DNA of 64,000 nucleotides from Octopus vulgaris (taxonomy: Eukaryota), in the NCBI GenBank assembly GCA_951406725.2, contig OX597823.1, forward strand, positions 86,428,001 through 86,492,000, in the 5' to 3' direction. Shown here in pieces: positions 2,816-64,000 of this stretch; positions within the stretch are counted from its first letter, which is position 1; every line of letters begins with the position of its first letter. The position numbers and the translations under genes are program-made. Below the pieces are notes generated by a model. That model searched no databases. It was not told where the DNA came from and saw nothing but the letters and a program-made list of their open reading frames with translations.

Positions 2816-4010
2816 CAAGGACTGGAACTTGCGGTGGAAATCATACATTTTCAGTACTTGTTTCATCAAATTAGGAATGGTGAAAGAGAAAGTCATAGTC
2901 AACGACCGCAGGATTTGAACCTAGAATCATAATGAAATGCCGCAGGACGCTTTACCCGTCTCATTACCGATTCGGCTAATGTATTGCCTTCTATTAGTCA
3001 TATATAATCTATAAATAAATATACACGATTCTTTATTAAGTTATTAATTTTCGATTTATTTCTAAATCGGAGTAAAATACAAAACTGATAAATGCAGTAA
3101 TTATTTAATTAGTAAATTAGTTAATTTAGTTAATTAATTATTTTGTTTAATCTGTTAGCTCAACCAATCCTTTTTACTAAACGTACGTAGATTTTCCATT
3201 TTTACATTTAATAATTCACAAAGAATAGGACTATTATTCCAACTACCATAATCATAATTACATCTGCCTCTATAGTAGCTGAAGTTTTGTTTCTTTTGAA
3301 ATCATTTCCAACACCATTGTTATGATGTTAAATGACTTTATGTACAGACGATAAATATTGACCATACATCCTTTTCATAGCAGGAAATCACATATTCAAG
3401 CACGTGTCTTCGTGATGATTTCTCTATACAATGGCTTGCGATTATGTGTGAAACTTTACGTGCGATTTTCAGAAAATAACATTTTTTTTCCTCCGATATT
3501 GGAATGACCCTAAGAAACAGCGACCACACCCACGAAACAGAAAGAACGTGAAGTATTACAAAGGAAAACAAAAGAGATTTGATGCAAAGAAGAAAGTAAG
3601 TTATGATGTATACTAACATTGCAAAATGTAAAATCTATTATGCTTATGAAAAGCAAAATATCCTAGCAATCGTGTTAACGTGCTGTCAAGTGAATATTGA
3701 ATATTTCTTTAAATGAGTCTAGAAATATATGGCTAAATGTAAGTATAAAAGTTTATCAATAATATAAATAATACACCAAAATATGAGAACTTATATGTGA
3801 TACCAACATTTCAAATAGTAGTTGTCAGATATCTGAAGCGAGTGTTATATAAATAGACATAGTGAGTATTATATATTATATTTTTGTGAGCATTCATCCA
3901 GAAATATAATCTGATAAAAGGCGTAATAAATAATAAACAATAAATAATAAATAATACATGGAAACTTGATCAAATTACATGAATGTTAATAATATTTGTG
4001 TATTTATTTT

Positions 4011-5052
4011 AAGGCGGTGAGCTGTCAGAAACGTTAGCACGCCGGGCGAAATGCTTAGTGGTATTTCGTCTGCTGCTACGTTCTGAGTTCAAATTCCGCC
4101 GAGGTCCACTTTGCCTTTCATTCTTTCGGGGTCGATTAAATAAGCACCAGTTACGCTCTGGGATCGATATATAATCGACTAAATCCGTTTGTCTGTCCTT
4201 GTTTGTCCTCTCTGTATTTAGCCCCTTGTGGGTAGTAAAGAAGTGGGTATTTCGTCTGCCGTTACGTTCTGAGTTCAAATTCCACCGAGGTCGACTTTGA
4301 CTTTCATCCTTTCGGGGTCGATTAAGTAAGTACCAGTTACGCACTGGGGTCGATATAATCGACTTAATCCGCTTGTCTGTCCTTTTTTGTTGTTTCTATA
4401 TTTAGCCCCTTGTGGGCAATATAGAAATAAGAAACGTTAGCACGCCGGACGAAATACTTATAAGGGGGCGAGCTGGCAGAAACGTTAGCACGCCGGGTGA
4501 AATGCGTAGCCGTATTTCGTCTGATGTTACGTTCTGAGTTCAAATTCCACCGAGGTCGACTTTGCCTTTCATCCTTTCTGGGTCGATTAAATAAGTACCA
4601 ATTACGTACTGGGGTCGATATAATCGACTTAATCCGTTTGTCTGTCCTTATTTGTCCTCTCTGTGTTTGGCCCTTTGTGGCTAATAAAGAAACAGGCATT
4701 TCATCTGCCGTTATGTTCTGAGTTCAAATTTCACCGCGGTCGACTTTGCCTTTCATCCTTTCGGGGTCGATTAAATAAGTACCAATTACCTACTTGGGTC
4801 GATATAATCGACTTAATCCATTTGTCTGTCCTTGTTTGTCCCTTCTGTGTTTAGCCCCTTGTGGGTAGTAAAGAAATAGATATTTCGTCTGCCGTTACAT
4901 TCTGAGTTCAAATTCTGCCGAGGTCGACTTTGCCTTTCATCTTTTCGTGGTCGATTAAATAACTACCAGTTACGCACTGGGGCTGATGTAATCGATTTAA
5001 TTTCTTTTTTCTCCCATCTGTGTTTAGTCCCCTGTGGGCTATAAGGAAATAA
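4011..5052 (+). mobile_element. tRNA-derived SINE family A, head-to-tail multimer of about 5 units
   Basis: A-box-like GAGCTGGCAGAAACGTTAG and B box GAGTTCAAATTCC; core GCCTTTCATCCTTTCGGGGTCGATTAAATAAGTACCAG repeats about every 185-190 bp. Confidence 0.88.
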
Positions 5053-14689: not shown

Positions 14690-15248
14690 TCACATCGACC
14701 CCAGTACGGAACTGGTACTTAATTTATCGACCCCGAAAGGATGAAAGGCAAAGTTAACTTTTACTAAATTTTAACTCATAACGTAAAGACAAACGAAATA
14801 CCGCCAAGCATTTTTCCCGGCTTGCTAACGTTTCTTATTTTTTATTGCCTACATGGGGCTAAACATAGAGAGGACAAACAAAGACAGACAAAGGGATTAA
14901 GTCGATTACATCGACCCTAGAGCCTAACTGGTACTTAATTTATCGATCCTAAAAGGATGAAAGGCAAAGATGACCTCGGCGCAATTTGAACTCAGAACGT
15001 AACGGCAGACGAAATACCTATTTCTTTACTACCCACACGGTGCTGAACACAGAGGGGACAAACAAGGACAGACAAACGGATTAAGTCGATTATATCGACA
15101 CCTGTGCGTAACTTGTACTTAATTTATCGACCCCGAAATGATGAAAGGCAAAGTCGACCTCGGCGGAATTTGCACTCAGAACGTAGCGGCAGACGAAATA
15201 CCACTAAGCATTTCGTTCAACGTGCTAATATTTCTACCAGCTCGCCAC
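14690..15248 (-). mobile_element. SINE family A multimer
   Basis: Three reverse-complement units of the same consensus. Confidence 0.85.
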
Positions 15249-36405: not shown

Positions 36406-36975
36406 AAATAGAATTTGTGGCTTATGTCGCTTCTGACTAGTGTTTGAAGTTTGCCCTGTTTGTTATAAGGAATTCATGGCTCAATGTAGCATATGTTTTA
36501 AATAGGATCTGATTGGTTTAGAAATGTCACATGACTGATTTTAGAAATTTGTGTAGGTTCCCCGCTACGTCCGTATGTGAGCGTCAAGTGACAATGTTTG
36601 CGTCGTAAAGTTGAGGCTGACACTGTTGACTGCACAAGTTCAAACAATCAATGCTCTGAATGTTTTCTGTGAAGTGTTTGCAGAGAATGGACACATGATT
36701 AAGTTTATAACCGTGTGTACGTTTCCCGCTACGTCCGTGCGTTAGTGTAACATGACAGTATATTTTGCGACGAAAAAGAGGGCTGACATGGCTGAGCGAA
36801 CATATTTAGTTATAATCAAGACAGACCAAATTTAATCTGTCTCGTTGGAGAGTGGAGAGGAATCGTTTGTATGTAGTCCAATGGTTAAAATTTAGATTGT
36901 TATCTGTGTAGTTTCCTCATGATAAGCAGCAGAATGAATTTTGTGTGTGAATAGTTATTTGTGTATGTACCTCTG

Positions 36976-38030
36976 TTAAAGTTTGCTAAGTCTTGGATTG
37001 TACTTTTGTATGAAAGTATTTTCTTTATTCATCCATGCTTCATCTGTGGTATTCGCTGAACATAGGTAGAGTGGAAAGACCTGAAATTTAGGAGACTTAT
37101 TTTTTGCACATATTTCTAAGTGATGACCCAATGAGATCTGTCTTGTACTGGGTTCTCGTATTTGTTGTTGGTGACTGGTCAGTCTATTTTTTAGAGTCTG
37201 GCCTATGTAATCTTCATTACATCCTTGACATTTGACATCGTATATTAAACTCCTTGAAGAACATGTAAAGTGATTTTTTACAGTAAAAGTCTATCCTGAT
37301 TTGAATTTTTATGATGTGCCTTCAATAAGGTTGATGCACGTCCCGCAATTGGGGCGGCCATATTTTTTTACTGTTGGTAAAGGAATTTTGGAAGCAAATG
37401 TGAGGAAGTTTTTGAGATACTTTGATTGTCTTTTACTTTTGCTTATTTTGCTTATTTTGCTTTTTTCATTCGTGGGTCTTGTTTTAGTAGTGGAATATTC
37501 GGGTGGATAATATTGTAAACCTCTGTGTTTCTTGGGTTGTGTTTTGTAATAGATGGTAGATTATTGGATGTATCTGGAGCGTTTTTCGTTTTCCGTAGTT
37601 CTTCGATATTTATTGCCTTGGCAAGTTCTATTCTGTTGTCTATTAGAATTAATTAGACCTTTTTTATTAGTTCCTGGAGTCTTTTATCATGAGTTTCAGG
37701 GTTTGAGACAATGTTGCAGATTCTTCTTGCTAGTTTGAAGGGGACATTATTCTCCGTTTGGGATGGCATGAGGGGAATAGTAAGTATTGTTTAGAATCTG
37801 TTTGTAGTGAGTATCTGTTTCAATGATTGTATCTCTTTTGGTGATTAATATATCCAAAAATTGTAGTTGAGTTTTACAGTATTCCACGGTAAAGTTAATA
37901 TTATTTTTATGCTTTCGATCAAATTTTTGAAATCTATAAGTTGCTCAAATCTAATCATAGGATTAGGAAGTCATCTAAGTAACGTTTCCAGTTTTCTGGT
38001 AGATATTTGTGGAAGTTCAAGCCATATATT
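36976..38030 (-). pseudogene. PLE reverse transcriptase C-terminus plus GIY-YIG endonuclease, disrupted
   Basis: YLDD and LIY...YIG motifs are readable; in-frame stops and frameshifts are present. Confidence 0.88.
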
Positions 38031-38646
38031 AATTTATATTGTTCATGTATCTGGACGTCCATGTATGCCATGACAAGATTGGCGTACGTCGGGGCAACTT
38101 TGGTCTGTAAAAATGTCTATTTAATGAGTGCTGCTGTTTATATCTTTCCTGATGAGATTGAGGCATAGCTGACCATAATTCTTCCTGTCGGATGTAATGG
38201 GAATGCATCCATCGAAACATATGTGGACGATATGAAGATATAAATGTTTTAATAACATCCTGAGCATTTGTCTCCTTTTTCAATTTTCCTAGATATATAA
38301 ATATATATGTGTGTGTCTGTGTGTGTGTTCATAAAAAAAGGAGTAAAAAAGTCAACAGGAAAAATCAACAACGCACGGACGTGTACATGCAAAATATTAA
38401 TATGAGCGAGAATAGAACAGGTGTGAAACATTGTTTCTATCAAAACATACTATTATGATGTCATAATAAAATGCTAACCTAACACTTCGGTTACACTCTT
38501 TACATTATTCAGATGTATATCACAGCAAACGAAAATCGAAAGACAATGTATGTCTAATACTTTGTTGGCATTTGGTGATACACAGAGCTATAAGGAATGT
38601 TAAATATTAACTGTTATGCTATCTCTTTGCAAATGAAATTCATGTA

Positions 38647-49027: not shown

Positions 49028-49081
<54 letters not shown>

Positions 49082-49145
49082 CTTAAGTTGAAGCACCAAA
49101 ATTTAGTCTGGTATTATCCGTACATCTTCGAAATAAGGTGAAGAA

Positions 49146-49759
49146 AATCAAAATAAGCAACAGGATATCCAGCGGTGATGCAGTACGATCGTTTCAAGCG
49201 GATCCATTTAATTGAACAATGCAATCATCTCATCAATTTAAATGTAGGGCTATCCTCAGCTGCATAAAAAAATAGAATTTTTTAATCAGTCGGACATATT
49301 TGTATAATTTTACTTAAATCCTCTAATACTACTTAAAAATAATCTTGTCAAGTTTTATGACTACACCCACTAAGATTCTGCCAACTCCCTCATGCCCTTT
49401 CCTAACAGACACTAGTCTCTAGTCTTAGATTTGATAGACAAACATTTGATAAACAAGACTAATAAATTAAAACTGAACCAAAATCAGTGGCAAGCTATGA
49501 CCCAAACAAATTATTTTTCCTGATGTCTTAGAAACTTCTAAACTGAAGCGACAATAGCATGGACATTGTGTATCTTCTTACCCTATTAGAAGTTTTAAGT
49601 AAAATTATACAAATATGTCCGACTGATTAAAAGAATTATATTTATTTATTTATGCTGCTGAGGATAACCCTGCAATAAAATTGCAGTGTTTAATTAAATG
49701 AAGCCACTTGAAGCGGTCGTACTGCATCACCTCTGGATATCCCGTTGCTTATTTTGATT
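49146..49759. mobile_element. Fold-back PLE-terminus-like insertion with ~180-bp inverted arms (49146-49328 / 49584-49759), each carrying an outward-facing HHR
   Basis: AATCAAAATAAGCAAC...TTAATCAGTCGGACATATTTGTATAATTTTACTTAA pairs with its reverse complement on the right. Lies near (TA)n. Confidence 0.75.
49178..49265 (-). ncRNA. Type I hammerhead ribozyme
   Basis: Minus strand: ATGCAG-CTGAGGA-T-AGC...(CATTTAAATTGA/TCAATTAAATG)...GCT-T-GAA-ACGATCGT-A-CTGCAT. Helix I is 6 bp and helix III is a perfect palindrome. A degraded copy (GAAG instead of GAAA) lies at 49652-49727 (+). Confidence 0.8.
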
Positions 49760-49982
49760 ATATATATAAACCATTTGTAGCACTTAAGGACATGCATTGA
49801 GTCCTTTAAATACATATTTATCTCTCATCAGAGGAAAACTATTTTTGTTGAATTTTCTATCACATTACATATATATGTTATACAATAAAGTCAATTTCAA
49901 TCTAGCTTGCTTGCTTGCAATGTTACCCAGGCAAACTGGCGCATAATGGAAAAATACTATGGATTAAGCTTACACTGAAATG

Positions 49983-52698: not shown

Positions 52699-53116
52699 TC
52701 TTATTTCTTTATTGCCCACAAGGGGCTAAACACAGAGGGGACAAACAAGGACAGACAAAGGTATTAAGTCGATTACATTGACCCAGTGCGTAACTGGTGC
52801 TTAATTTATCGACCCCGAAAGGATGAAAGGCAAAGTCGACCTCGGCGGAATTTGAACTCTGAACGTAGCGGTAGACGAAATACCTATTTCTTTATTACCC
52901 ACAAGGGGCTAAACATAGAGGGGACAAACATGGATAGACATAGGTATTAAGTCGATCATATCGACCCCAGTGCTTAACTGGTACTTAATTTATCGACCCC
53001 GAAAGGATGAAAGGCAAAGTCGACCTCGGCGGAATTTGAACTCACAACGTAATGGCAGCCGAAATACCGCTAAGCATTTCGCCCGACGTGCTAACGATTC
53101 TGCTAGCTCGCCGCCT
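52699..53116 (-). mobile_element. SINE family A dimer
   Basis: Two reverse-complement units. Confidence 0.85.
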
Positions 53117-55899: not shown

Positions 55900-56350
55900 T
55901 GTGTCACAACGGCGAGAAATTATGAAAGGTAAGAACCAAATTCTTCATTCACATTATATGAAATTTGCGACCGTGAAGCACCTGGGCTCGAGAGTTTTGC
56001 TATATCAACAAACGCATAAACAAGCATTTTGATAGCAGACCTAGTAAGGGTCATGAAGAATACATTTCCTGTGTCTCCCCTATGAACGGAGAAAACATTT
56101 ACAGGATTTCATCTGACACGCAATTTTCTAAATAGAACAAACAAAATTAGATGAAGGTTTATAAAAAAAATCAGAAAAAAATACTTTGAAATGGTCACCA
56201 GCTTTGATGTAAATGGATTGTGCTCTAACGACAGCACCAAATTCTGGAACAAATTTAAAGAACAAAGAAATGTGAACCAGAAAATACTTCTGGTATTAGT
56301 GATACCGAAGTTCGTCGATGCTACATCAAGAGGTGAACTAGAATACAAAA
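55900..56350 (+). pseudogene. Possible heavily decayed PLE RT fragment
   Basis: MVTSFDVNGLCSN resembles PLE RT motif A (LVSFDV.SLYTN). Upstream QTHK...SRP resembles PKIHK...RP. Confidence 0.3.
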
Positions 56351-56535
56351 TTCGAAAAGCTATTTAAATTAAAAAAGGTACAAAGTTTACTGTTTCAGTA
56401 GTTGATTAAAAAAAAAACAGGTACACCCATCGTGTAACTCAAAGAATAGAGATAGTATTTAAATACAAGAGCCCCACAACCACCATATTGTATACACTTG
56501 GTGACGTATACATTCTTAATGTATTCAGAGAGATT

Positions 56536-56770
56536 AGCGGCGAGCTGGCAGAAACGCGCTAGCGCGTCGGGCGAAATGCTTAGCAGTATTTCGTCTGTCG
56601 TTACGTGCTGAGTTCGAATTTCGCCGAGGTCGACTTTGCCTTTCATCCTTTCGAGGTCAATAAATAATGTACCAGCTTCGCACTGGGGTCGATGTAATAG
56701 ACTTGATCCGTTTGTCTGTCCTTGTTTGTCCCCTCTATGTTTAGCCCCTTGTGGGCAGTAAAGAAATATA
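56536..56770 (+). mobile_element. SINE family A monomer with TSD
   Basis: Flanked by TATTCAGAG(A/G)GATTA on both sides. Older family A copies lie near 5110-5580, 14205-14420, 30910-31125, 31635-32080, 35328-35512, 42155-42365 and 53678-53885. Confidence 0.85.
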
Positions 56771-57842
56771 TATTCAGAGGGATTATAAAGATTTGGAAGT
56801 GTAAGTAGATAGCAGGAGATAGAGAGAAAGAGAGAGATGTAAAGAAATGAAAAGAAATGGAGAGAAAACGAGGGAGAAAAGAGGGGTAAAGACAAAGGGA
56901 AGATGAATTTGTATGTTTTTGAGTGTGTTTATATTGTTTATTTACATATATCCGTATACTACTCCAATCACGTTCTTATTAATAAATCTGTTGATTGCAT
57001 TATTTGGTAGATATTAGCTTACGTGTCTTTATCTATGTCTCTGCATCCGCCGCTGCAATACTTCACGTATGCATAGCGAATCATGTCCTGCTCGAAATCC
57101 TTACATAAGAATAGACCGCCGTCTTTTGACGTGTCCTTGAATGCAGCAACATTATATACGTATTAATGTATGTTCTCTTTAATCTGCTTGGCTTTGTTCA
57201 GCCGGGCAAATGGGCAAGTTGCATTGTATTCCATTTTATTATTCCTTTGTGTCATTTCCTTCATGACTTTTATTTAATCCTAATCGCAAATGTCTTGTTA
57301 ACTAATTATCCGACCATCGTTTGTGGTTGACTCTAACGAAATTCTTTGTCATTGTAAAATAATATAATACTCCTCTTTAGATGAATTCGCATGCACGCAT
57401 ACACCTATGCGCATGCGTGTGCGCTTATATCCTGACATGTATTTAAGCGTTTCAACTTGTAAAGTATTCTTTTATATTCTTTTGTTCTTTTATTTGTTTC
57501 AGTCATTTGATTGCGGCCATGCTGGAGCACCGCATTTAGTCGAACAAACAGACCTCACAACTTATTTGTAAGCCAAGTACTTATTATATCGGTCTCTTTT
57601 GCGGAACCGCTAAATTATGGGGGACAAAAACGCACCAACATCGGTTATCAAGCAATGGTTGGAGGGACAAACATAGACAAACACACACACACACACACAC
57701 ACACATATATGCTTTCGATGCAGGAAATCCTTTTTTCTATCGGGGGCTTATATGCTCCTCTATTGGACTATTTCTTTAGTCATTGTACAGTGATCCCCAT
57801 AAGCTTTAAGCCTATGTAAAAATACCATTATTATTATTTACA

Positions 57843-58155
<313 letters not shown>

Positions 58156-58789
58156 ATACACGGCGGGCTTCTTTCTTAAAAATTCTATAACAGATGGTAA
58201 TTATTGTTGCACTATATGTATGAACTCTTTGTTCTCTGTCCATTCCAGTTTGTGTATGTTTGACGGCACAAAACCTGTTCAAGCATTTCAAGGGAGGTGA
58301 CACAATCTTACGCCAAGGCTAGGAGACTTTTGGAAGATGATGACTTGCTTAATATGCTTGAGCTGCAGCCAACCACAAGTACTTATACACCGGCGGCAGA
58401 ACTTAAACCTTCAAAAAAACAGCATAGATTGACACCCCTATAATTTCGACCTTGTGAATATACGCTGTTAAGATGCTCGTTGTGGTATGACCAATAGAGT
58501 CAAGATGTGTGAATATTTGCAAACAACCGCTGGCAAATACTTGAGCTGTCTGTTTTTGACATAGAATTGTAACTAGGGATGAAAATGGATCTATTTTCAT
58601 AATCCTAAGAGAAATCAGTAGCTTCACTCTGGCCAACACCACCTGTTGTCAAACAGCACTTGTTTGAACAGAAGGTCATATTGAATATTTGGTATTATTT
58701 GATGGATTGGAGTTGCAATTTACGCCTGTCTCAGATCGTCATGCTATGAGTGCTAAATGCAGTGAATATATGATGCTTGGAACGATACG

Positions 58790-59172
58790 CAATGCTACTG
58801 CATGACAATGCCCCAGTACACACTGCAATGTGACCATGCGCAAACTTGAGTATTTTGAAGGCCTGAAAGTGTTAGCTCACACTGCCAACAGCCTAGACGT
58901 TGCACTCTCACATTACCACTTTTTCCGGGGCATGTCACCCTTCCTGTCCAGACGGATATTCAACAATGTGGATGAGGTTCAAAATGAGGACGCGAAGGTT
59001 TTTACTTCTAAACCAGCCACAAGCGTAGAATTAAGGTACTGGGGCAATGATGGCAATAGACAAAAGAATATGATAGGATATATTTTGATGAATTAACGTC
59101 TTTCGTATGTAACTTGTTCGAACTGTTAACAAACGCTTGAAATATGAAGAAAACTTTTGACCCAACCTTGTA
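58790..59172 (+). pseudogene. Decayed mariner transposase 3' part with a probable right TIR
   Basis: MLLHDNAPVHTA...LAHTANSLDVALSHYHFFRGM..FL.RRIFNNVDEV; ends AAAACTTTTGACCCAACCTTGTA. Confidence 0.75.
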
Positions 59173-61153
59173 TAATATGTAGCGGGATGAGTAACTGCTA
59201 TTCAGTTCAACAGTTGCTGATGAACTGCCTGTTCTCTTCGTACATATTCCGTCTTTTTATGCCGCATATTTAAGGTCTTTTTTGTTCGTTACTTTAATCG
59301 CATTTTGGTGTCCCCGACGTAAATCAGAAAAGATTTCCCTCGAAGTTCGCTTCCATCTTTAATGTTATCTGTCCTCTGGACGAACACTGAATCCATAGAT
59401 GCAGTTTGATGATAAGTGAATTGTAGATATTGTTTATAGTAAATGAAGACATATTTAGAGGCTGTTTGAATCACTATTATACTTCAGCTGGCTGGTTTTC
59501 ACTTTTTGTAGAAGTAGTCTATATCACTTTTGAGGTAGAACTTTCTGGTGTGGGTTAATAACTTTCAAGTTTTAACATCTTTCATCCTGGATTTCATCTA
59601 GCGTTTGATCCATTAGCACCCTACTTTTGCAAACATATAGAAACATTTATCGTGACCAAAATCAGTCACTGTATCCTTCATGAATGTTGTAATCAGGTCA
59701 AGGATTTTCTACATACCTTTCATACTGTTGGTATTTTTTCTCAGATCGTCTACAAAGAAGCAGTGTATTAGGTTGCTATTTCTGTTTCCCTGAAATCCGT
59801 TTAAATCAACTTTAAATTATCGCAACAAAATCACAAAATACTTTGTTGAATGCATAAAGGGGAAATATCTCATTGAAATAATTCCTCATAGTTTTATCGC
59901 AGGGACCATAGATATACCTCTTACTCTCATTGTATTTAATAGCATAAAAGATATCCGTGTATGTTAGACGAAGCCCTTATTTTAGAAACTAATAGTCAAG
60001 AAAAAATCTTTTAGCGCATTGAAGCATGTAATATGCACTCAACCTTGCATGTAGGACACGGGGTGACATTTTTTTGCGACGTTATTTGGCAAAATGTGTG
60101 TTATGTATGTTGTCAACTACAGTAATTTCAAAATGGTGGGCCAGAAAAAAAGTTAGGCCACGGCTACCTATAGTTTCATTGTGATACTTGGAACATTAAC
60201 ACATTGAAGGGATTTTAGCATCTACGTCTAGGGAACAAGATCGAAGGCCTTTGCGCAGTGATTCCGATTTGAGTCCAAAGGCTTCTTATGCTGCTGCACA
60301 TCTGACAGCTTTGCTTTGCTAGTCAGAAGTCATTTAGCATATCTTCAAACAACATTTTTTTTCTAATTTGCTTGAATGAGAAGTGAAGACATTACTTTTA
60401 TGTTGATCCTGACAGAAGGATTTACATAACTTATACTGATTTCATATATGACATTTTGGCATGCACTTGGTCAGTAGTTTTTCGAGATATAAGTGGAATT
60501 TTTTACTATGTTTTATTTCCACCAGCATTAACCACATTATCGTGTTTATTTTTCTATTGAACAGCCTACAAGTAAAATTTATTGAGACATCTCTGATATC
60601 AATTCAGTTTCTTTTACCAGCATATGTTTGCATGTTTAATAGATATTAAATGAATCCTAAAACACTTCCCCCCTATAAATATATTCATGAAACAATGCAC
60701 AAACACCCATTTGACGGGTAACTCTCGAAGTATATATTTACCCTGTAGATAATATAAAAAATTATGGTATTCATGCAATAATTATAATTAAACATTTATC
60801 AAACTTTTATCAAATTTCAGGTTGCTTATACAAAATGATGAAATGAATATTTACTTTCGAAAGTGAAATATTTACCAACTGAATAGGAAAAGCAAATAGT
60901 ACAAGTGTATATATGAAATAAATGTATGTTATTTTATGAAATATTCATCAGCGTAATCGCAATCTTCTGCAATGGAAACCTACTCGTGAAAAGTCATATT
61001 GAAAAGTAAATGTGTATTTTTCAGAAAAATATAAGGCACGCATTCTACTTCGTTTAAGTTATCCCTTTTTATTCTTCCTCGTCTACAGTATAAATCGTAA
61101 CTCGAGGAACCAACCATCATTTATATTACGTATATTTGCTACTACAAATGAAC

Positions 61154-61187
<34 letters not shown>

Positions 61188-61224
61188 ACACGCACAAACA
61201 CACACACAAACACACACAAACACA

Positions 61225-61260
<36 letters not shown>

Positions 61261-61618
61261 AACAAACAAACAAACACACACACACATGATTTATGAAAGG
61301 CAAAGGAGAGAGAAGACGGATTTGAACTCAGAGTTGCAGATGACAAAAACCAATACGCTACAGTAGTATTCCAGCAGAAGTTCGTAAGACCGAACCAGTT
61401 CGTCAGAGAATAATATATCTTTTATATTCTACTCGTTTCGCTCATTGGACTGCATCCATGATGGGGCCACGCTTGAAGAGTTTTGTCGAACAAAGTGAAA
61501 CCTAAGTTAAGGGACATGACCATACTAAGCCTGTTATCATGCTGTGAATACGGGCAAACGAATACACACACACATACACACACACATGTATACATGGCTA
61601 TGTATAAATATATGTATA

Positions 61619-61676
<58 letters not shown>

Positions 61677-61813
61677 TGTATGTATGTATAACATCACAAT
61701 CAAGGAACGGCCATAATAGGCCATTCACCCACTAGAAATAACAGCCAAAGCTTCAACCGCAAAATAACATTAATTCCGTAAACCAGGAGAAAATTAAAAA
61801 CATTTACCCTGTA

Positions 61814-61920
61814 ATTTCTTATACGATGCACCGTTTCATCTACTGTTTAATGGTAAACTAACCTGATTAAATTAAATCAAGCCAATCTTCCATAGGCCCT
61901 TAGATTCCTCAGTAAGAAAT
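61814..61920 (-). ncRNA. Type I hammerhead ribozyme, inverted copy of 62672-62778
   Basis: Reverse complement of the plus-strand HHR, with all core nucleotides intact. Confidence 0.88.
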
Positions 61921-62671
61921 AGCCAGAACGGAACAGATATTTTCACGAGGCATTTCTGTCCCTGCCTCGGCAATATCTGACCTAAAATTTTCAAATCATC
62001 GCACTCGCGCCAAATTTATCGGCAGCAAATAAATATAAGCCGCCGATTCCATTACGGAATCAACCAGAAAATTCATAATTAATCAATATAGGGTGGCAAA
62101 AAAAAAAATTTTGTAGAATTTTTTTGCCACCAGCGGCCTAGTGGGAAAAAATTAAATAGTCATAGACCATTTATAAGTTCAACATCACAATCAAGGAGGG
62201 CCTATGGAAGATTGGCTTGATTTAATTTAATCAGGTTAGTTTACCATTAAACAGTAGATGAAACGGTGCATCGTATAAGAAATTACAGGGTAAATGTTTT
62301 TTAATTTTCTCCTGGTTTACGGAATTAATGTTATTTTGTGGTTGAAGCTTTGGCTGTTATTTCTAGTGGGTGAATGGCCTATTATGGCCGTTCCTTGATT
62401 GTGATGTTGAACTTATAAATGGTCTATGACTATTTAATTTTTTCCCACTAGGCCGCTGGTGGCAAAAAAATTCTACAAAATTTTTTTTTTTTTTGCCACC
62501 CTATATTGATTAATTATGAATTTTCTGGTTGATTCCGTAATGGAATCGGCGGCTTATATTTATTTGCTGCCGATAAATTTGGCGCGAGTGCGATGATTTG
62601 AAAATTTTAGGTCAGATATTGCCGAGGCAGGGACAGAAATGCCTCGTGAAAATATCTGTTCCGTTCTGGCT

Positions 62672-62778
62672 ATTTCTTACTGAGGAATCTAAGGGCCTAT
62701 GGAAGATTGGCTTGATTTAATTTAATCAGGTTAGTTTACCATTAAACAGTAGATGAAACGGTGCATCGTATAAGAAAT
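62672..62778 (+). ncRNA. Type I hammerhead ribozyme with canonical core and long helix II
   Basis: Helix I ATTTCTTA/TAAGAAAT (8 bp); core CTGAGGA at 62680; helix II ATCTA...TAGAT with internal extension ATTGGCTTGATT/AATCAGGTTAGT; GAAA at 62755; helix III ACGGTGCATCGT (self-complementary with G-U); GUA cleavage triplet ending at 62770. Confidence 0.9.
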
Positions 62779-63015
62779 TACAGGGTAAATGTTTTTTAAT
62801 TTTCTCCTGGTTTACGGAATTAATGTTATTTTGCGGTTGAAGCTTTGGCTGTTATTTCTAGTGGGTGAATGGCCTATTATGGCCGTTCCTTGATTGTGAT
62901 GTTGAACTTATAAATGGTCTATGACTATTTAATTTTTTCCCACTAGGCCGCTGGTGGCAAAAAATTCTACAAAATTTTTTTTTTGCCACCCTATATTGAT
63001 TAATTATGTATGTAT

Positions 63016-63048
<33 letters not shown>

Positions 63049-63139
63049 CATACATATATATATATATATACATATATATTATACATTTATATAATCAATT
63101 CAAAAAGACATACACACATAATATACGGTTTGTATGCAC

Positions 63140-63184
<45 letters not shown>

Positions 63185-64000
63185 ATTTGTATGAATGTCA
63201 ACATATGTACAAATTACTGTGGTACGTGTCTGGTGAATTTTGTGTCTCTGCCCACACACGCCTTCGTTGAAGTAGCTACGTGTTTGTGTACGTCATGTTA
63301 GCACTTTTCTTTTCTCTGTCTAAGAACAGGTTTTTGTGTTGCTGCCTAGAGATAATTAAGGTGGAGAAAGGATGAAGTAGAAATTACATTCACAGGAGTC
63401 TAATCATTTGCTTTTTGGTTTTGTTTTCCGTTCGTTTTTTTCCTGCCGTAAGTACATAGTGGATTATTTGAACCGAAAGTCAATGTGTCGCTTGTAAATA
63501 TATGCATTATGACGTGTCTGAAACACTAGGTAACGGTAGTAAAGGTGATGAATAGAAAACAGGAAAAGCGAAAACAACACAAATGGTTATAAACGAAAAT
63601 TTGTGTAAGTGGCAATTGCCATCTTTTCTATAAGTGTTTGTCTTTGCTCATTGACCAAAATCTTTCTGCAATCTATTCTGGGTTCTCTACTAACAAAAAG
63701 AAATACATGAATAAAAAAAAATATAAATATATATATCAATAAATAAAAATGAAAAAAAAAACGTGAATAATCGAAGGAAAACAAAATGGAAGGTAACAAT
63801 ACTACAATGTAACAAACTGCAACAAAAGGTTATAATGAAAACAAAAGAAGAAATAAAGAGAGGAAAAACAAAAGAATAAACTCATATAGTGTATAAACAA
63901 TATCAACATTGTTTAGTCATCGATATATATGTACTGAATTGAACTAAAGAAGTCACTGCTTACGACTTCTGGTCGTTAATTCGAGAAGTATGGGTGATCA

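Follow-up and report, generated by a model that had tools for sequence, protein, structure and literature searches.

A recent hammerhead-bearing retrozyme insertion in the Octopus vulgaris genome, probably written by a Penelope-like enzyme

The window, i.e. the whole stretch of 64,000 nt of Octopus vulgaris DNA that was analysed, contains an element that spans positions 61690-63008 and is seated inside a (TA)n tract. The element is made of two back-to-back arms, of 1.03 and 1.65 units of a 495-nt non-coding repeat, with both 3′ ends pointing outward. Unit positions are numbered so that position 1 corresponds to 62276, and we refer to the two classes of outer 3′ end found in the family, at unit ~130 and ~242, as E1 and E2, respectively. 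The features of the locus are the following:

61690..62197, minus strand: inverted arm of 1.03 units (512 unit positions), which has its inner end at unit 117, goes once round the unit and has its outer 3′ end at unit 133, of the E1 class
62197..63008, plus strand: direct arm, running from unit 417 round to 243 (817 unit positions, 1.65 units), with its inner end at unit 417 and its outer 3′ end at unit 243, of the E2 class
62901..63008, plus strand: 3′-terminal stretch of the direct arm
62276..62770, plus strand: full cut-to-cut monomer, 495 nt, with strong self-pairing in prediction
62396..62405, plus strand: internal copy of the putative E1 start site (unit 121-130, TGATTGTGAT)
62506..62517, plus strand: internal copy of the putative E2 start site (unit 231-242, TTGATTAATTAT)
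62672..62778, plus strand: complete type I hammerhead of the direct arm, as read from the sequence, with stem I of 8 bp (62672-62679/62771-62778), core CUGAGGA (62680-62686), stem II with a 5-bp base and a long extension, GAAA (62755-62758), stem III (2 bp plus A-U) capped by a loop of 6 nt, and a predicted cut after GUA at 62770
61814..61920, minus strand: complete hammerhead of the inverted arm, of the same build
62197..62283, plus strand: upstream hammerhead, 3′ half only, without the 5′ strand of stem I and without CUGAGGA
61675..61689: left copy of an apparent target duplication, 15 nt, where the (TA)n tract 61599-61690 terminates
63005..63019: right copy of the apparent target duplication, whose first 4 nt are common to the element end; the (TA)n tract on this side is 63005-63182

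The two arms meet at 62197 with an overlap of 1 nt, and each of them is 99% identical to the monomer 62276-62770. The direct repeats are spaced by 495 nt, and the copies at the locus differ at one position outside the A/T-run hairpin. The window copy is longer than the usual unit of the family (488-491 nt), with the extra length in the T run. No ORF of more than 47 aa lies wholly within the element, G+C makes up 171 of the 459 unit positions counted, i.e. below the 45% that characterises retrozymes, and the element appears to have no LTR/PBS/PPT layout, its ends being TA-primed. A preliminary description of this DNA, made from the sequence alone, had reported a non-coding unit of ~495 nt in tandem and inverted copies, two blocks that both exceed one unit and a predicted monomer at 62276-62770, and our measurements of spacing, arm length and arm identity agree with it on these points. 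The apparent target duplication lies in low-complexity flanks and is only suggestive.

The monomer gave a fold z-score of -6.42 in prediction, and the internal E2 copy (62506..62517) would form the 3′ strand of a long predicted stem, 42-72/226-265. The three commonest variants (44, 51/256 and 69) preserve the long predicted stem. Among the rarer variants, predicted pairs are disrupted and conserved in roughly equal numbers, and double changes were absent, so that covariation does not establish the fold of the whole monomer.

The hammerheads of the two arms had been called in the preliminary description, together with the truncation of the upstream plus-strand copy, and both calls hold, the former by motif, stems, family conservation and covariation and the latter by the 3′ half that is all that lies at 62197..62283. 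The Infernal/Rfam scan which that description had put forward as a check returned no hammerhead match, either at E ≤ 1 over 56000-64000 or at E ≤ 10 over 62640-62820, so that the call rests on motif, conservation and covariation. Precisely, all 12 core bases are kept in 277 of the 282 spanning copies from 97 loci, a count that is biased because hammerhead words had served to select most of these loci; where the selection used the E2 end alone (20 loci), the cores were intact in 38/38 copies. The free position N7 takes all four bases and the cleavage triplet is either GUA or GUC. Double changes preserve the pairs 397/503 (9 copies), 400/500 (5 copies) and 416/475 (10 copies), i.e. pairs of stems I and II, and represent few events, since the copies are related.

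The hammerhead had a local fold z-score of -3.47, and its active fold lay above the ensemble by 3.3 kcal/mol in the circle and by 4.6 kcal/mol in a local transcript, all these values being predictions. With so short a stem III, cleavage may depend on dimers. A descriptor run on the sense strand of the unit found one hammerhead per unit and, from its sequence conservation, the ribozyme is predicted to cut once per unit. We considered also whether the catalytic strand of the downstream copy could complete the truncated upstream ribozyme, which is about 10 kcal/mol uphill in prediction, so that release of a monomer from this locus by that path is unlikely. Given this cost, and given that neither arm has a second complete ribozyme, the locus is likely a daughter rather than a source.

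We searched the family in the whole genome (2.8 Gb). The monomer gave at least 251 matches in the 40 candidates scored out of 1275, with 96-100% identity in full units. The exact junctions numbered 468 for E1-TA and 797 for E2-TA, with 0 for the reversed controls, and the family therefore has at least 797 insertions. The 20-mer of the 5′ half of the ribozyme had 180 exact matches in the genome, and the 23-mer of its 3′ half had 2953 matches at ≤ 2 mismatches. Of the insertions, 119 loci were examined in four samples. Subfamilies are 91-94% identical to the window copy, a few short old copies are ~80% identical, and the loci with E2 only are older subfamilies and not a coding partner. The divergence between the two arms of an insertion is 0.58% (49 loci). 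At least two complete ribozymes in tandem were present in 56/99 loci, in arrays of up to 14.3 units; the longest found, L049:1435-8419, has A at N7 in 12 of its 14 units. One locus, L145, consists of two insertions, and the first alone was counted.

In none of the 119 loci was a Penelope-like ORF continuous with the unit, nor did an ORF with RT and GIY-YIG domains lie between pseudo-LTRs (pLTRs). The family fits a non-LTR retrozyme, a kind of element that is already known, and the locus fits a real young insertion of it. The earlier description of a young tandem retrozyme is borne out by insertion count and identity. The spread of hundreds of loci with unique junctions and distinct haplotypes over many contigs speaks against an assembly artefact, and the lack of a continuous Penelope-like ORF in the loci examined against the terminal repeat of a coding Penelope-like element. 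The unit had also been judged longer than usual for an animal retrozyme, which does not hold, the published consensus lengths being 51-972 bp according to a 2026 preprint (10.64898/2026.07.22.740005).

The outer 3′ ends had been thought to be permuted around the unit, and in this respect the preliminary description has to be corrected. Of the 112 outer 3′ ends of the 66 loci sampled first, 53 lay at unit 124-136 (E1) and 49 at 235-246 (E2), i.e. 102/112 at two fixed points, while 10 lay elsewhere, several of them through misalignment in the T run; the locus in the window, with its ends at 133 and 243, follows the same rule. E1 and E2 are 112 nt apart, and we refer to the stretch between them as the tail. 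TA adjoins 109 of the 112 ends, which indicates an AT or microsatellite target. A TTGATT occurs a few bases upstream of both E1 and E2, and both sites end in AT. Since the two ends are fixed in the family, the ends of this locus are no evidence for a circle.

The two ends are also distributed by a rule of one of each per insertion. Every inverted insertion of the first 66 loci in which both ends could be classed had one E1 and one E2 (40/40, binomial p 1.8e-12), and 6 were unclassed. When ends were classed by motif in 99 loci, 66 loci were inverted, 57 of them E1+E2 and 9 with an unclassed end, and among these 66 neither an E1+E1 nor an E2+E2 pair was found. The nine unclassed include the present locus, whose coordinate assigns it to E1, a locus that adjoins an N gap, and L148, which is stub/stub by script and E2 plus a short stub by eye. 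Among the 33 loci considered as direct, 5 carry a short inverted stub of the other type. A second sample, of 20 loci selected through E2, contained 15 inverted arms; E1 is the end point in 14 of them, and the remaining one is cut off at 306 without TA. Thus one arm carries the 112-nt tail and the other does not. The inner ends, by contrast with the outer ones, are scattered over the unit, and the 46 inversion junctions analysed had microhomology in 27 cases, inserts in 14 and blunt joins in 5. E1 and E2 are likely the two start sites of a Penelope-type priming.

We used as a control the autonomous Penelope-like families of the same genome. Family A is Neptune-type and young, with a 781-aa frame containing RVT_1 and GIY-YIG domains and a CxxC linker. 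Family D is also Neptune-type, very young and abundant, with an 811-aa frame containing RT, CxxC linker and GIY-YIG, and has at least 150 copies, all the 150 endonuclease copies scored being identical. In both families the copies have two alternative end points, separated by 33-42 nt and each joined to (TA)n (tail of 42 nt in D), and 19 of 20 inverted D pairs have one short and one long end, the other pair having two long ends. Since the one-of-each ends of the retrozyme match the rule of family D, also in (TA)n, Penelope-type two-site target priming is the likely route of insertion. The arms of D differ by 0.39% in 17 pairs, picked for identity and hence biased towards young ones, against 0.58% in the retrozyme, so that the activity of the two overlaps in time.

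As for the hammerhead, the descriptor found no canonical one in family D in the L142 copy (L142:1283-3500; the D loci are L201-L220). Family A has at most a degenerate hammerhead-like stretch (L094:5850-5900), and family B has a minimal hammerhead with a CCGAAGA core ~137 nt before its TA end (L108:5305-5350). We found no autonomous element with sequence likeness to the unit in families A, B and D and in about ten other endonuclease-bearing fragments, the partner candidates scored being 150 of 6136 and 150 of 18233. BLASTN and a profile of natural units, run on ~1 Mb of flanks and Penelope-like loci, gave one short fragment of the family and otherwise weak AT-rich matches only. In the 119 loci, the Penelope-like fragments near units are parted from them by (TA)n or other DNA and have no sequence in common with them. 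At L141, L142 and L112 the insertions are stacked, the retrozyme having entered the terminal (TA)n of an autonomous Penelope-like copy.

The published data on Penelope-like elements describe a tail of 30-40 bp that is often one-ended, and inverted 5′-truncated copies as common (PMC8557442). According to the in vitro work on a lizard element (PMC11167929), its protein nicks and extends both strands of AT-rich DNA, its RT uses two internal start sites that bound the tail, with no difference between strands, and hammerhead cleavage is dispensable, the uncut RNA being the main substrate. We regard mobilisation of the octopus family by a Penelope-like enzyme as highly probable.

Other elements of this kind are present in the window and around the family loci. 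At 49060-49760 there is a second, unrelated hammerhead element, with a type I motif at ~49160-49265 (minus strand) and an end in (TA)n that lies ~105 nt past the cut, while the opposite, inverted arm begins at 49584; its relatives at other loci are 70-85% identical, as in an older family of the same build. At 36967-38125 (minus strand) lies a broken Penelope-like ORF, from the end of the RT to GIY-YIG; its identity with family A is 35-46%, and after it come ~700 nt and then (TA)n. The flanks of L032-L168 (~1 Mb) contain ~35 type I hammerhead motifs that belong to at least a dozen sequence types other than that of the family, most of them < 300 nt from a (TA)n end. Judging from these motifs, hammerhead-bearing elements of Penelope type are abundant in the genome. 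SINE-like repeats with a tandem unit of 184 nt occur at 4010-5001, 14836-15202 and 52702-53068 of the window, and presumably resemble the tRNA-derived SINEs of octopus.

The form of the template was evaluated from arm lengths and from variants. Among the 158 arms with a classed end (165 arms in all), 100 are longer than one unit. The cut site was passed 304 times, with 5 stops within 10 nt of it versus 6.9 expected, in agreement with the earlier view that copying goes through the cut site; the template was therefore either a circle or an uncut multimer, and a linear monomer is excluded, unless the RT jumps seamlessly. Reads joining 62770 to 62276, proposed earlier as a sign of circles, are non-discriminating, because the same junction is an ordinary tandem junction in the DNA. 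As regards RNA, no RNA run was listed on record for the unit; in the contigs of runs guessed as RNA the unit is covered and the flank hardly; run X15, also guessed as RNA, has even flank coverage and ~10^4 times more summed depth on the unit, which traces of DNA or pre-mRNA from many loci could mimic.

At the four main subfamily sites all the multi-unit loci were uniform, with both arms alike (26/26). Of 145 within-locus variants, 104 were absent from every other locus sampled, and 15 rare variants were fixed in all the copies of both arms, in 12 of 65 two-arm loci. The inversion junctions were absent from all the other loci in 66/67 cases (the junction test of L058 was set aside, its 9-nt overlap being matched everywhere). 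In five loci a variant is common to both arms and yet not fixed in all the copies. L031 and L069 have a non-periodic variant in both arms, which a mixed multimer or gene conversion fits better than a monomer circle; that of L050 is a CpG change, L122 has probably a fixed variant plus a later change, and L054 mixes a family-level variant.

In L046 (L046:1992-4441) intact and stem-III-broken ribozymes alternate over four laps, by two variants, one of which abolishes the pairing of 485 with 492 in stem III. The other arm, which ends at 127, close to the E1 start at 124, carries the broken form as well. This locus, the sharpest case, would be a copy of a dimer RNA in which one cut failed and which was then circularised, and it could also derive from a two-unit block duplication with conversion, or from a linear multimer. 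L163 (period 2) and L144 (period 3) show periodicity by one variant each; a period of 2 in L164 was discarded, there being actually three changes in one unit. The long single-arm arrays L049, L054, L056 and L068 have common private variants, a sign of growth in place. A pile-up of stops after whole laps, considered as a sign of circles, was not significant (best p 0.03 of six tests). Fixed A-to-I edits were rejected, there being no excess of A>G: the shared variants comprised 5 A>G against 9 T>C, and the singletons 11 against 25. Overall the variant patterns lean to circles, with exceptions, and a circle was probably the usual template.

On these grounds we consider the locus as a recent insertion of a non-LTR retrozyme, likely written in trans by a Neptune-type Penelope-like endonuclease/RT, with the two cut strands as primers and an RNA that was probably circular as template, and we assign to this reading a probability of about 0.62. 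Tandem loci would be transcribed, the hammerhead would cut the transcripts once per unit, as its conservation predicts, and the monomers would be closed to circles of ~490 nt, as by analogy with other retrozymes. A Penelope-like protein would then bind the structured 5′ half of the unit and nick both strands of (TA)n, one cDNA starting at E1, ~130 nt after the cut, and the other at E2, ~242 nt after it (the ends themselves being observed), each start presumably with 2-4 nt of AT microhomology. Both cDNAs would run 5′-ward past the cut site; the arms observed have a median of ~1.2 units and reach 7 or more. Their inner ends would be joined through microhomology or short inserts, giving the back-to-back arms, one of them tailed, that are seen in the genome, and some long single-arm arrays may extend in place, as their common private variants suggest.

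A more specific form of this scheme is tentative, and we put it at somewhat less than even odds: one complex would start both target strands on the same ribozyme-made circle, at two obligate sites 112 nt apart, with both cDNAs lapping the circle; L046 would be the product of a dimer circle, and one short plus one long end would be a general law of Penelope-like integration, for passenger and autonomous elements. Against the main reading we counted the stem III of only 2 bp plus A-U, the active fold 3-5 kcal/mol above the ensemble in prediction, the failure of Rfam to match it, the lack of an autonomous partner similar in sequence among the families sampled, the five loci with variants common to both arms but not fixed, the mixed variant of L054, the non-significant pile-up of stops after whole laps, the dispensable hammerhead cleavage and equal start sites on both strands in the lizard element in vitro (PMC11167929), and the 8 of 9 Xenopus retrozyme dimers that did not cleave (10.64898/2026.07.22.740005).

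The same element with the same two-site priming could also be copied from an uncut linear multimer transcribed from a tandem source locus, circles, if made, being a by-product, and we hold this for the less likely alternative. Uncut RNA is the main substrate in vitro in the work on the lizard element (PMC11167929), 56/99 loci have at least two complete ribozymes in tandem, the non-periodic variants of L031 and L069 occur in both arms, and among the 73 E2 arms there are 4 whose stop, at 127-128, falls close to E1, a pattern expected from twin priming on a single RNA strand (p 0.012, for a position picked after data inspection). On the other side, no daughter carried its parent's inversion junction or flank (66/67 unique), rare variants are fixed in all the laps of both arms in 12/65 loci, subfamily haplotypes never mix at the four main sites, the private variants of L049, L054, L056 and L068 are mostly absent from the other sampled loci, and the ribozyme is conserved as if cutting mattered.

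The other explanations are far less probable. The unit could be the pLTR of an autonomous Penelope-like element and the copies its 5′-truncated insertions, as the tandem and inverted build, the tail and the hammerhead near the end, all of them Penelope-like traits (PMC8557442), and the resemblance of Xenopus retrozymes to pLTRs (10.64898/2026.07.22.740005) would suggest; arms that cross up to 14 whole units with no ORF between them, and the separateness of the nearby Penelope-like fragments in the 119 loci, make this very improbable for the present copies, although the family may have originated from a pLTR while now spreading as a unit. Equally little credit goes to a satellite or MITE-like repeat made at DNA level by rolling circles or unequal crossover, with the hammerhead as a passenger: the private variants common within long single-arm arrays do point to local duplication, but the fixed 3′ and variable 5′ ends, the TA targeting, the polarity of the arms and the one-of-each rule match target-primed reverse transcription and family D, and the ribozyme shows covariation. 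An assembly artefact or a chance fold would be favoured by the difficulty of assembling inverted repeats beside microsatellites and by the empty Rfam search, and can practically be dismissed, the loci being in their hundreds, spread over many contigs, each with its own junction and with haplotypes that differ.

Non-LTR retrozymes are described as tandem and non-coding, with a type I hammerhead, and expressed as circles in coral, mussel and axolotl, with lengths of 220-240 bp in coral, 350-390 bp in mussel and 331/353 nt in axolotl (Cervera and de la Pena 2020, PMC7229834). Penelope-like elements have been proposed as their mobilisers (PMC7229834, PMC7761336), and a 2020 review reports retrozyme repeats without a motif pointing to a partner (PMC7761336). 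The 2026 preprint (Li, Clavereau and Pollet, 10.64898/2026.07.22.740005) covers 35 genomes, with no mollusc among the groups that it names, and reports co-occurrence with Penelope-like elements and likeness to pLTRs; in vitro, 1 of 9 Xenopus retrozyme dimers was cleaved and 8 of 9 were not. The octopus family is like the metazoan retrozymes in its tandem non-coding low-GC units with one type I hammerhead each, from dimers to multimers, in its highly self-paired monomer, in its co-occurrence with Penelope-like elements and in a unit length that falls within the published range. It differs from them in its resolved ends, target and two-arm build, which correspond to Penelope-type priming, and in the long extension of stem II; circular RNA has been demonstrated in those retrozymes, whereas the octopus family is known from genome sequence. 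The available portions of the metazoan retrozyme papers (PMC7229834; 10.64898/2026.07.22.740005) contain no analysis of ends or targets and no cephalopod family. As well, no cephalopod retrozyme and no analysis of retrozyme insertion ends was found in a literature search that left subscription papers mostly aside, and supplements may list such families.

With the Neptune-type Penelope-like elements and the PAc in vitro system (Craig et al. 2021, PMC8557442; Frangieh et al. 2024, PMC11167929), the octopus retrozyme shares partial tandems, an adjacent inverted 5′-truncated copy, a one-ended tail, a microsatellite or AT target and two internal RT starts downstream of the hammerhead. The Chlamys MRC1-type elements (PMC8557442) are similarly non-autonomous Penelope-like passengers with multicopy head-to-tail insertions, but their 3′ sequence is generally common to autonomous families, while the octopus family has a conserved hammerhead and, in the sample of families searched, no partner. 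The viroids with hammerheads and the viroid-like circles (PMC7761336) are also small structured hammerhead RNAs, and the octopus RNA may be circular as they are; unlike them, the retrozyme showed a ribozyme in one polarity only, the descriptor having been run on the sense strand of the unit, is genome-encoded and appears to be spread by reverse transcription. From autonomous Penelope-like elements it differs in having no ORF, multi-unit arms and a tail of 112 nt, compared with 30-40 nt as published and 33-42 nt in families A and D.

In L1 twin priming both target strands prime on one RNA, which gives an inverted segment with a microhomology join; there the second strand primes at a random point, and the two arms have no sequence in common. 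In the octopus retrozyme, instead, each strand has its fixed priming point, and whole units are common to the two arms.

So far the link between animal retrozymes and Penelope-like elements consisted of co-occurrence and likeness to pLTRs. In the octopus family the insertion footprint itself is of Penelope type, with an autonomous control in the same genome. The footprint leads to exact predictions, i.e. starts at unit 130 and 242, one per target strand, and a TA target, and it offers a small natural RNA for the reconstitution of the poorly understood Penelope-like integration, while natural variants such as that of L046 make the question of the circular template testable.
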